From positions 64,001 through 128,000 of the IMG/VR virus record IMGVR_UViG_3300021387_001774: a stretch of DNA of 64,000 bases; one strand, given 5' to 3'. Positions 56,980 through 59,900 of the stretch are shown here, in pieces (position 1 is the first letter of the stretch; each line of letters starts with the position of its first letter). The translations under genes and the position numbers were made by a program. The DNA is from a virus (lineage: Duplodnaviria > Caudoviricetes). The notes under the pieces are model-generated. The model saw only the letters and a list, made by a program, of their open reading frames with translations, searched no databases and was not told where the DNA came from.

Positions 56980-59900
56980 ATGTATCACTCAAGTGAAGAC
57001 ACTGTTAATGGTGCACATGGTTCTATTGCTAGAACTTATCTTGAAGAATATCGCCATTTAGGTCCGCTTCAAGATGCTCCAGCTTCTCATGACTTCAAAA
57101 CGTATATGACTACTTCTTTAATTAGAAGAGGTATATTATTTGAAAATTCAAAAAATATTAATGAACTTTATAGAGCTTCATTAGAAGAATTATTCTCTAG
57201 TCAATTTAAGAATATTTTCTTGTATGATCCAAAAAGAGAAATTACTGGAATTTACACAGGTATTGAGAATGTAAAAAACATGGGTCCTGTAGGTACTCAT
57301 GATATGTTTGCTTCTTTATTTGGATTAATTCCTGCAAAATATCTACCAATTTTTGAACCATTCGATTATGATTTCAAGAATGATGAATCTATTGATGTAG
57401 AATATACACCAGAAGAGAAACGAATAATAATTCTTTCTCGTGGTATCCATGATGATGGAACAGCTTTCAATTATACAAAGCTTACCGCTTATGATAGAAT
57501 GCTTGGTCCAAATCTTGGTACAACGTATTTTACACATCCAAAACTTCCTAATAGTACTATTTATAATAGAGTAGATACGATTGCTACTCCTAATGTAGAT
57601 CCAAATCAAAAATACTTTATTAGGGTTGATGATACTTATATTGAAACACATGATTTCGATACAGTAGAAGAATTCAACAAAGTTGAAAACTCTATTACTC
57701 CAGATTTTGGAAGAACTTATTATAAGAAAACAAGGAATCCAAATACAGTAAACTTTATTCCTGCAACAGGTATTCCTGATCTTTCTACACAGTATTTCAT
57801 TAAAGATCCAGCAAATGAAGACAATTATATTATTGCTGATGTATTTAATGATAGAAAAGATTATGTTTTAGTAAACCACGAAATGGATCATACTGATTCT
57901 AAATATCCTATTGAAGGAATGGATTACTTTAAACGTAATGAAAACAGAGAATACGTAAAATGTAATGAAGAAGATTTTGCTAAAGAATATGAATATGCAG
58001 AAACAGCAGATTCTGTAGTAAGTCAAGAAAAGACTTATTATATTAAGAATATAGATGACACATATAGGCCTGCTGTAACTGAAGATTTCCTTCATGAAGA
58101 TATTACAGAAGAACGTGAAGCTGATTCATATAATGAAGTACTTGATAAATCTGCTGGTCCTCAACCTGGAACTACTTATTATGTAAAGAATGAAGTTTCT
58201 CATGAATACGTAGCTGTAGATCCAATAAATCTTCCTACAGAAAACATTTATTCTGAAACTCAAGATTTAGCATATGATGAATCTAAGTCATATTATATTA
58301 AAAACGCTGATGGAGTTACATATAGACCTACTGTAAATGAAGACTTTAATAGAGTTGAAAAAACTACAGAGCAAATGGTTGATAATTTCGTTCTTACTGA
58401 AGACGATACATATAATCCTGATAAAGAATATTTTAATAAAAATGGTGACGATTATGTTGCAGCAGAGTTTGAAGAAACACAAACTACAGTCACTACTCAA
58501 GAAAATGTTTACAATCCTACAGAAGATGTAGACTATGATGAAAGTAAAACATATTATGTTTCTGATGGTGATGGCGGTTTTATAGCTGCTGAAGATACTG
58601 ATTTCGATATTGATGCAGATATTAAATCATTCAAGGCTGATGTTACTTATTATGAACTTACAGTAACTACAAAAGAAACTCCTGGTCCAGTCACTACATC
58701 GTTTAAAGATGATCTGGAATACTATGAAAAAGTACAAGTGCCTACTCAAGTACCTAATGGAACATTCGATGTTTCTTTCAAAGATGATGTAACATATTAT
58801 GAGATTACTGGTACAAAAACTATATTTGAAGTAGGTATAATTTATTATACTAAATCAACTGGTACAGATACTGTAGTAATTGGACAAAATACAACATTTG
58901 ATCCAGATTTAACATATTATGAACGTATTAGTTATAAACTTATATTTGCTGATAATATTGATTACTATACACTTGAAATAGTTGGTAAACTCTTTGTACC
59001 TACTATTCAATATTATACAAAACAAGTTATCGATAATGGATATAAATATGAAGAGATAAACGATTTCGATATACATGAAACATATGAATTAGTTGATAAA
59101 TCAGTTATTACTAATCCTGATACAAATGAAACTTACTATGTAATGGAAAACTTCAATTATGTAGCTAAGACAAATCTTTTGACTTGGGAAAGTGATAAAG
59201 AGTATTATACTAAAGTGATTACTAAAACATTTAAAGCTGATGTAGAATATTATTCTAGAGAAACTGTTACAAAATTTAAAGTAGCATCTCTTGATGATCC
59301 ATCCTATATCTATTATACTGCTGAAGAAGTAGATAATGGATACGATGAAACTAAATATGTAATCACTGATGTAAGTGATGGATTTGAAGACATCGATTAT
59401 TATACAGCAGATATCGATTTTGAAAATACAACTCTTACTGATGAAGAAATGGCTGAACTTAGAAAGAAGAAGGTTATTAATAAACTTAATCAGTTATTTG
59501 ATTATTATGTAAAAGATGTATTAACTACAGCTAGAGAAATATTCCTTAAACACGACATTTATGAAATAACAAAATCTGTTAACATGGAGGCATCTGATTA
59601 TGAATTACACGCAATCCGTATTCTTTATAAGAAGATCCTTCAAGTGATATACACGATGGTTTATACAGTAAATGTATCAGCAGACCTTGATGATACATGT
59701 GTACCGTATAAATTACTTAGGGATTCTGTTGTTAATTTATTGGCTAATGTGAAGATTCTTGGAGAAATGATCTCAACAAAGCATTATTATTCTAAGAAAG
59801 TTCTTTCATATTTTATTCCTGATTCAAAGAAAGAAGAAGTCTGGTATAGATATACACTTGTATCTCCATTTAGTGACTTAGTTACTATTGAAGATCAAAC

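Follow-up and report, generated by a model that had tools for sequence, protein, structure and literature searches.

In the genome of a tailed phage (IMG/VR record IMGVR_UViG_3300021387_001774) we analyzed a stretch of 64,000 nucleotides (nt), hereafter called the window. It holds a gene (56980..60189, + strand, stop codon included) for a 1069 amino acid (aa) protein that probably carries a very acidic β stalk of ∼650 residues, built from modules nested in copies of themselves. The chain would run out along this stalk and back again, starting from an all-α base domain. We put the probability of this reading at roughly 0.7, and the out-and-back course of the chain appears well supported by the comparative and predictive evidence. 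In the proposed architecture the N-terminal and C-terminal parts of the protein form the base, and the stalk is inserted between them, leading to a tip and back. It would contain three outer modules, seven inner modules and one uninterrupted side module. The heads and tails of the modules would lie on the outward path and their closers on the return path in reverse order, N-half i meeting C-half n+1-i. Each outgoing linker, together with the next β1, would pair with a returning β4 and its linker to give a two-stranded antiparallel ribbon, on which the β2-β3 hairpins would pack as beads.

The gene and its genome

The window comprises bases 64001-128000 of a single contig of 263,686 bp (263.7 kb) with 29.5% GC. 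It encodes a tail sheath, a virion structural protein, a large terminase, a DnaB-like helicase, a primase, a multisubunit-type RNA polymerase β subunit and several giant open reading frames (ORFs) of 1611–2811 aa. The source genome is that of a jumbo phage. The mechanically called ORF of the stalk protein spans 56923-60189 (+), and every peptide quoted in a preliminary description of this DNA was found in place in its translation and residue list. The true start is almost certainly ATG 56980, which lies 8 nt after an AAAGGAG ribosome-binding site (RBS) and is also where P0002, a database protein with 98% identity, begins. The mechanical start, TTG 56923, adds 19 residues (56923-56979, +) that are probably untranslated, because the RBS sits just upstream of ATG 56980. 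This extension is present in one database fragment, P0028. Residue numbers below are those of the mechanical translation (P0001), in which residue n begins at 56923+3(n-1); subtracting 19 gives the numbering from the Met, which is used by the structure models.

A grammar of heads, tails and closers

Seven consecutive N-halves, N1 to N7, occupy 57754..58605 (residues 278-308, 313-352, 357-389, 402-437, 443-475, 488-516, and 529-561); this and all further stalk features are on the + strand. Each has a short, aromatic-containing strand and a loop, continues with a second strand that ends in YY or YF, and passes through a tight turn into a third strand with D-F at its end. We refer to the first two strands (β1 and β2) as the head and to the third (β3) as the tail; the assignment follows the sequence and the strands of an AlphaFold2 (AF2) model. 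A turn of eight residues (562-569; 58606..58629) at the stalk tip, modeled by AF2 as a small hairpin (model strands 542-545 and 548-551), leads into seven C-halves, C1 to C7 (residues 570-700; 58630..59022). These are closers of the form F-x5-YY, each corresponding to β4 in the sequence and in the AF2 model, and they begin at F570, 594, 619, 635, 659, 675, and 691. The order of seven N-halves, a turn and seven C-halves, already reported in the preliminary description, is thereby confirmed.

The nest is flanked by three outer modules. On the outward path (57469..57753) the sequence gives the O1 head (183-212), the O2 head and tail (213-248) and the O3 head (249-277). On the return path an orphan tail that resembles the N-half tails and was assigned to O3 (701-715; 59023..59067) is followed by a single uninterrupted module, the side branch (720-765; 59080..59217). 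The latter shows β1, a loop, a β2-β3 hairpin, a second loop and β4 (AF2 strands at model positions 697-704, 719-723, 726-730, and 742-750), and it is the only intact copy of the module in the protein, as had been claimed. The closing elements of the outer modules follow at 59230..59415: the O3 closer (770-779), the O2 closer (785-800), the O1 tail (801-821) and the O1 closer (822-831). Two heads, those of O1 and O3, have no outgoing tail, and two orphan tails (701-715 and 801-821) are found on the return path. This agrees with the second insertion point that the preliminary description had proposed for the outer modules. With outer and side modules included the protein has 11 heads and 11 closers; the nested units alone number 7 and 7.

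The motif [FWY]-x5-Y[YF] occurs 12 times in residues 183-831, compared with 1.4 ± 1.2 (maximum 7) in 5000 composition-preserving shuffles, and Y[YF] occurs 22 times where 9.8 ± 2.8 are expected from such shuffles. Tandem Repeats Finder detected no DNA-level tandem repeat in the stalk gene; thus, the units are old and diverged. As a hidden Markov model built from five N-halves was too noisy for such diverged units, all counts given here come from anchored motif lists checked by eye.

These elements suggest a simple grammar. A module would be a unit of ∼45 residues and four strands, made of a head (β1 and β2, ending in YY), a tail (β3, ending in D-F) and a closer (β4, F-x5-YY), and it would admit other modules at two loops, one between head and tail and one between tail and closer. 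In the window protein O1 would enclose O2, and O2 would enclose O3, whose first site would hold the seven-deep nest. Behind the nest, O3 would resume with its tail (701-715) and, after the uninterrupted module seated at its second site, end in its closer (770-779); the O2 closer, the O1 tail and the O1 closer would then complete the outer modules. Read at the level of sequence, the side branch and the second insertion point fit this grammar. By the same grammar the nesting depth would be 10 in the window protein and 14 in some orthologs.

Balanced counts in related proteins

Two database searches yielded 38 related proteins, all of them metagenomic. In all twelve proteins examined, which belong to two clades, the numbers of N- and C-halves are equal (2/2, 7/7, 9/9, 10/10, or 11/11). 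Among the close orthologs the nested units number 7/7 in P0008, 10/10 in P0006, P0007 and P0011, and 11/11 in P0004 and P0005. The members of a distant clade (32–35% identity) have 9/9 (P0009 and P0012) or 7/7 (P0010), each together with one uninterrupted side module. Orthologs that gain N-halves without matching C-halves had been named as an observation that would speak against nesting, and no unbalanced protein was found among the twelve.

P0031 and P0039, whose N-terminal parts are unrelated, have a pair of N-halves and then a pair of closers at their C-terminal end. The phage itself encodes an ortholog of P0039 (71% identity), a 661-aa protein at 259798-261783 (-) of the genome (locus L006:99-2084). 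In this ortholog two N-halves, and no more, are followed at the C-terminal end by a turn and two closers, and a long linker faces another long one. No PHROG or Pfam match was found for the 661-aa protein and no PHROG match for P0031; P0039 gave only a weak DnaD-like PHROG row (E 0.0027), and none of these results hints at a function. Judged from these sequences, the nested hairpin is a portable appendage, which appears to recur in two or more further proteins of this phage.

At the other end of the range, modules at the stalk site of the family number 0, 1, about 3, 11, 14, or 15. In P0025, P0024, P0032, P0034 and P0035 the place of the stalk is empty or taken by an acidic linker. A single uninterrupted module, the same unit as residues 720-765 of the window protein, is present in the short homologs P0013, P0017 and P0018. 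P0015 (586 aa) combines three heads and three closers with two tails in place and one orphan return tail, and it shows the same order of head, later tail and closer as O3.

Stalk-type units are also seen in a 2406-aa giant ORF of the window (18696-25916, -). Heads of the form L-T/S-x-E-E-x3-G-P-x2-G-x2-YY lie near its residues 826, 852, 1069, 1210, 1434, 1461, and 1490, and F-x5-YY closers near 1682-1731. A copy of the promoter-like motif described below is located upstream (25955-25967), and the ORF has no Pfam or PHROG match.

Linker lengths and the mirrored register

The outgoing linkers of the window protein have lengths of 4, 2–4, 12, 4, 12, and 12 residues (short, short, long, short, long, long) and the return linkers, by the same measure, 14, 15, 6, 14, 6, and 6 residues (long, long, short, long, short, short). 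In rank order the one series is the exact mirror of the other, as the preliminary description had noted. The correlation between outgoing and reversed return lengths is r = 0.99 in the window protein, 0.96 in P0008 and 0.91–0.97 in five further orthologs; in direct order r ranges from -1.0 to 0.03 (orthologs with 7, 10, and 11 modules). For the 10- and 11-module proteins the observed correlation was reached by 25–229 of 20000 shuffles. In P0004, for example, outgoing linkers of 4, 2, 12, 4, 12, 12, 12, 12, 8, and 7 residues have mirrored counterparts of 6, 7, 14, 6, 15, 15, 14, 15, 15, and 11 residues.

A similar pattern was obtained by comparing the unit-similarity matrices of the two arrays, which correlate with r 0.49–0.84 in the mirrored, unshifted register and with r -0.44 to 0.00 in the direct one. 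An example is P0005, in which two near-identical N-halves (N8 and N9) stand opposite two near-identical C-halves (C4 and C3). We give mirrored similarity less weight than counts and linkers, because expansion of both arrays near their junction would also yield part of this signal.

Counts and linkers bear directly on the alternative that the stalk consists of two independent tandem arrays, autonomous small β domains followed by unrelated β-hairpin repeats, whose equal numbers are coincidental. Both unit types share the aromatic-x5-YY pattern and may be variants of one duplicated strand-turn unit, and in P0011 the linker DNA is 92–100% identical among N5 and N7-N9 and 95–100% identical among C1-C3 and C5, as tandem duplication would give. 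Coincidence would, however, have to hold in all twelve proteins and across 2, 7, 9, 10, and 11 units, and the linker lengths are mirrored rather than parallel. The return path of 131 residues is moreover nearly all extended strand and cannot form domains on its own. Together with the predictions for the separate arrays given below, this leaves two independent arrays already disfavored, and we regard them as very unlikely.

Predicted structure of the stalk

The full-length AF2 model, based on an alignment of 33 rows, has helical ends and an all-β middle (mean predicted local distance difference test, pLDDT, 77.6; predicted template modeling score, pTM, 0.46). Each outgoing linker forms one continuous strand with the next β1, of 8, 8, 17, 7, 17, and 17 residues. 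Likewise, the YY of each closer and its return linker form one continuous strand, of 18, 20, 8, 19, 10, and 9 residues (9, 10, 19, 8, 20, and 18 when reversed). Each array has an odd number of long strands, namely three, and the lengths agree only in mirrored order. As long strands need partners of like length, and these are matched only in the mirror, the model points to a two-stranded antiparallel ribbon carrying β2-β3 beads. From the predicted strand lengths, the nested part of the stalk would be of the order of 30 nm long.

The composition of the stalk, which is rich in Tyr and Thr (Thr 12%) with a net charge of -76 and a pI of 4.2, would also suit a largely disordered acidic spacer whose predicted β structure is an artefact of the repetitive sequence. 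The pLDDT of the AF2 model falls below 50 mid-way in most long linkers, and its modest pTM points the same way. Yet the beads reach a pLDDT of 80–90 in two different predictors, and the aromatic positions are strictly periodic and conserved across proteins that are only 32–50% identical. A disordered spacer would not impose balanced counts or mirrored linkers either, and we consider disorder extremely improbable.

The stalk as an insertion into one domain

The N-terminal part of the base domain covers residues 20-180 (∼160 aa; 56980..57462, +) and the C-terminal part residues 838-1088 (∼250 aa; 59434..60186, +). Both are helical in the AF2 model, the latter with a pLDDT of 80–95. The N-terminal part is conserved in all members, stalk-less ones included, and the C-terminal part is conserved in the family; members vary chiefly in the stretch that separates the two. 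The two parts are predicted to pack together. P0025, a stalk-less homolog of 383 aa, folds as one compact all-α domain (pTM 0.77). As this homolog is a closed domain, the stalk is to be seen as inserted within a single domain, and its chain has to come back to the exit point. Helical-bundle alignments in the full model span residues 127 to ∼1037, and with the P0025 fold they place the exit and re-entry of the whole insertion at a single site of the host domain.

Neither part of the protein resembles anything in the databases searched. Pfam and PHROGs gave no match for the whole protein or its three parts, and megablast and tblastn searches of 50,697 GenBank phage records gave none for the full protein, the N-terminal domain or P0013. 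A scan of IMG/VR returned no confirmed relative. The full model had no significant match by Foldseek against the PDB or by VIA-align, the best VIA rows being generic helical bundles with Z ≤ 5.0. The 383-aa base-domain model (P0025) had no match in Foldseek searches of the PDB, in BFVD or in an ESM Atlas shape search, and an ESM Atlas feature search for the stalk gave no usable match.

Predicted pairing of the two arrays

The pairing of the halves was also approached with a two-chain fold in ESMFold2, in which the N-array (259-546, numbered from the Met) and the C-array (547-686) were given as separate chains. The interaction prediction score from aligned errors (ipSAE) was 0.58 (0.57–0.58 in three runs), compared with 0.00 for the best of three controls. 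Contacts agreed to at least 98% between runs, and the pLDDT of the partners was at least 85. The N-array had a pLDDT of 85–86 with the C-array versus 41–47 with an unrelated partner, and the C-array 86 with the N-array versus 34 otherwise. Neither array alone is thus predicted as a confident fold, which also argues against two independent arrays, and we find this pLDDT contrast more telling than the ipSAE score. Of 80 solved complexes used for calibration, 58 attained the mark, and of 110 mismatched pairs 2 did; only 7 of the same 80 solved complexes, and both mismatches, lie at 0.60 or under, a comparison that is rough as our own alignment was used. The score is unlikely to reflect memory of a solved complex, because no similar solved structure was found.

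That the arrays associate as separate chains raises the question of whether they pair between chains, as a domain-swapped antiparallel dimer or a higher assembly, so that counts and linkers reflect an intermolecular interface. Fibrous phage proteins are commonly oligomers. The two-chain prediction makes pairing in trans physically plausible, and the recursively inserted domains of Si3, an insertion in the β′ subunit of cyanobacterial RNA polymerase, sometimes exchange elements (PMC11515920). Several features are nevertheless better explained within one chain. The eight residues that join N7 to C1 are modeled as a tight hairpin, and the monomer model is confident without a partner. The chains of P0031, P0039 and the 661-aa protein end after the second closer, as for a self-contained hairpin of two plus two halves, and the N- and C-terminal parts make one domain in the stalk-less homolog. 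We therefore consider pairing between chains unlikely and favor the folding of a single chain out and back.

Some points weigh against this out-and-back architecture. The alignments behind the models are shallow (12–33 rows), the full-length pTM is only 0.46, and by its own calibration the tool gives the complex prediction no more than weak support. Counts, lengths and similarity, rather than observed contacts, give the register N(i)-C(n+1-i), and both arrays expanding near the junction would also give part of the mirrored similarity. Finally, the orthologs are related to one another, and independent events of gain or loss are perhaps only four to six.

Possible growth of the stalk at its tip

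In every close ortholog the five proximal modules have orthologous counterparts, on the outward as on the return path, and all changes in copy number among these proteins fall in one contiguous segment centred on the turn. In the nested topology any complete sub-hairpin is contiguous in the gene; therefore, a single insertion, deletion or recombination at the tip alters both arrays together. In this way the tip could acquire, lose or exchange modules while the fold stays balanced, and the length of the stalk would be tunable. The confinement of variation to the tip fits insertion there.

The DNA of P0011 gives a less uniform picture. The cores of C1 and C3 are 100% identical and their mirrored partners N10 and N8 90% identical, but other pairs disagree. 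Dating of the N and C duplications at the DNA level is thus only partly congruent in this gene. The preliminary description attributed growth to the insertion of one module into another and not to tandem duplication. The restriction of copy-number change to the tip would fit this, but we could not establish the mechanism: the P0011 dating is only partly congruent, and a pair of tandem duplications, one per array, would give the same product.

We see about even odds for a more general statement: that the protein represents an undescribed family in which a four-strand module of ∼45 residues is nested in itself 10–14 levels deep, giving a rigid, length-programmable β hairpin rod from a single chain. 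If true, a single recombination step could insert, delete or swap cassettes at the tip, and the length of the rod could be tuned without an unfolded intermediate.

Discontinuous nested domains are usually regarded as rare one-off accidents. Here one family gives a graded series of 0, 1, about 3, 11, 14, and 15 modules with up to 14 levels of nesting, and the rule is simple and can be checked: heads and closers balance like brackets, and linkers mirror one another. For protein evolution, the series makes it testable how a domain enters itself and how such folds grow while staying stable. For protein folding, a half that is made first and is unable to fold until the half made last appears poses a sharp co-translational problem. 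In protein design, a single-chain β rod of programmable length would be of use.

Neighboring genes and possible function

Two genes follow the stalk-protein gene. The first (60192..61064, +) encodes a co-conserved protein of 290 aa with about six hydrophobic segments and a charged tail, which is 48% identical to the corresponding neighbor of P0013. The second (61067..61870, +) encodes a 267-aa protein with a conserved Cys...His...Asp pattern and 74% identity to its P0013 counterpart, a high conservation between genomes that are distant from each other. In the contigs of P0005, P0011 and P0013 a gene of the 290-aa type comes after that of the stalk protein. The trio of stalk protein, 290-aa protein and 267-aa protein is found beside orthologs with 1, 10, and 11 nested modules and is conserved whatever the length of the stalk. 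No Pfam or PDB sequence match was found for the 267-aa protein. Its language-model neighbors, which we take as a lead only, include Peptidase_C39-like clusters, and it is possibly a C39-like cysteine peptidase. For phage biology, the trio represents a conserved, unannotated three-gene unit in AT-rich jumbo phages known only from metagenomes.

A promoter-like motif, AACA-N6-TATA (56936..56948, +), is located 32 nt before the start codon of the stalk gene. A second motif, ACA-N5-W-TATA (60124-60136, +), lies inside the 3′ end of the stalk gene, 56 nt before the gene for the putative membrane protein of 290 aa. Genome-wide, 44 of 96 copies of the motif are followed by an RBS, a start codon and an ORF of at least 80 aa, compared with 3–17% for five control patterns. 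Within the window, its plain number (25) does not stand out from shuffles (18.8 ± 4.2); only the position relative to starts is enriched. The motif also precedes the tail-sheath and giant-ORF genes.

The protein had been labeled a virion fiber in the preliminary description. We could not support this label: there is no PHROG, Pfam or fold match, and the gene lies outside the structural cluster, among helicase and RNA polymerase genes. We tentatively suggest, at somewhat less than even odds, that the stalk projects from a late-expressed assembly, either of the virion or associated with an envelope, and that its length is adjustable, the reach being set by the number of modules. It may work with the two downstream proteins, a predicted multi-pass membrane protein and the putative C39-like enzyme. 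Two observations count against such a role: the promoter-like motif precedes the primase-like gene too, and there is no family, fold or proteomic match that bears on function.

Further downstream, a 169-aa ORF (62454-62963, -) starts with a 15-residue unit, consensus EYLKKYREAHKEEMS, in three tandem copies.

Comparison with known systems

The stalk shares its elongated, repeat-built and length-variable β structure with the fibers and decoration proteins of tailed phages. Most known phage fibers consist of domains in tandem, like beads on a string, or are intertwined trimers, and differ in this from one chain nested within itself. The stalk protein has no PHROG, Pfam or PDB match, nor had the P0025 base-domain model any in BFVD.

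In layout, the stalk resembles the arms of SMC and Rad50 proteins: both termini build a one-domain base, and an antiparallel arm folds back at its tip and changes length in a paired manner. Arms of the SMC/Rad50 type are α-helical coiled coils with ATPase heads. The stalk would instead be a β ribbon with beads on a base in which neither an ATPase motif nor a fold match was detected, and the two are unrelated in sequence.

The closest precedent is Si3, in which SBHM/HABAS domains are inserted in one another, several of them assembled from distant segments of the chain (PMC10895346, PMC11515920). A survey from 2026 of 2.7 million classified domains highlights Si3 as a case of six-level recursive nesting, the deepest that it reports (PMC13114784). 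The preliminary description knew of no account of such an architecture, and here it has to be corrected, as recursive self-insertion has already been described for Si3 (PMC11515920, PMC13114784, PMC10895346). By sequence logic and by the predictions, the stalk is a further instance, with a domain of one family interrupted by its own copies at several levels. As in Si3, a small β domain family is inserted into itself, and the elongated insertion leaves and re-enters its host domain at one point (PMC10895346, PMC11515920).

The two systems differ in several respects. The stalk module has ∼45 residues and four strands, while Si3 is built from a hybrid barrel of ∼65–80 residues. The depth would be 10–14 levels in the stalk compared with six in Si3, and the stalk is near-perfectly regular, with β-ribbon spacers of two fixed lengths. 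Its copy number varies between close orthologs, and its host is a phage protein, not an RNA polymerase. Si3-bearing chains appear among the weak Foldseek rows for the full model (E 0.003–0.09, TM-score 0.03–0.05, not significant), and Si3 is not among the top VIA rows for the same model; thus, no shared fold is shown. For an SBHM/HABAS fold (CATH 2.40.50.100) of the module there are only these weak rows, obtained with the full model as query and not with the module alone. Nor does the stalk reside in an RNA polymerase: it is flanked by the unrelated all-α base, which has no Pfam or PHROG match, and the β-like RNA polymerase gene of the phage is a separate ORF (51874-54000).

If our reading is true, the stalk represents a deeper natural recursive domain insertion than any in the survey cited above (PMC13114784) and a new design principle for extensible rods. 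Taken together, we conclude that recursive insertion, an architecture that is known but rare, takes a new, deeper and more regular form in the stalk, found here in an undescribed family of phage proteins.

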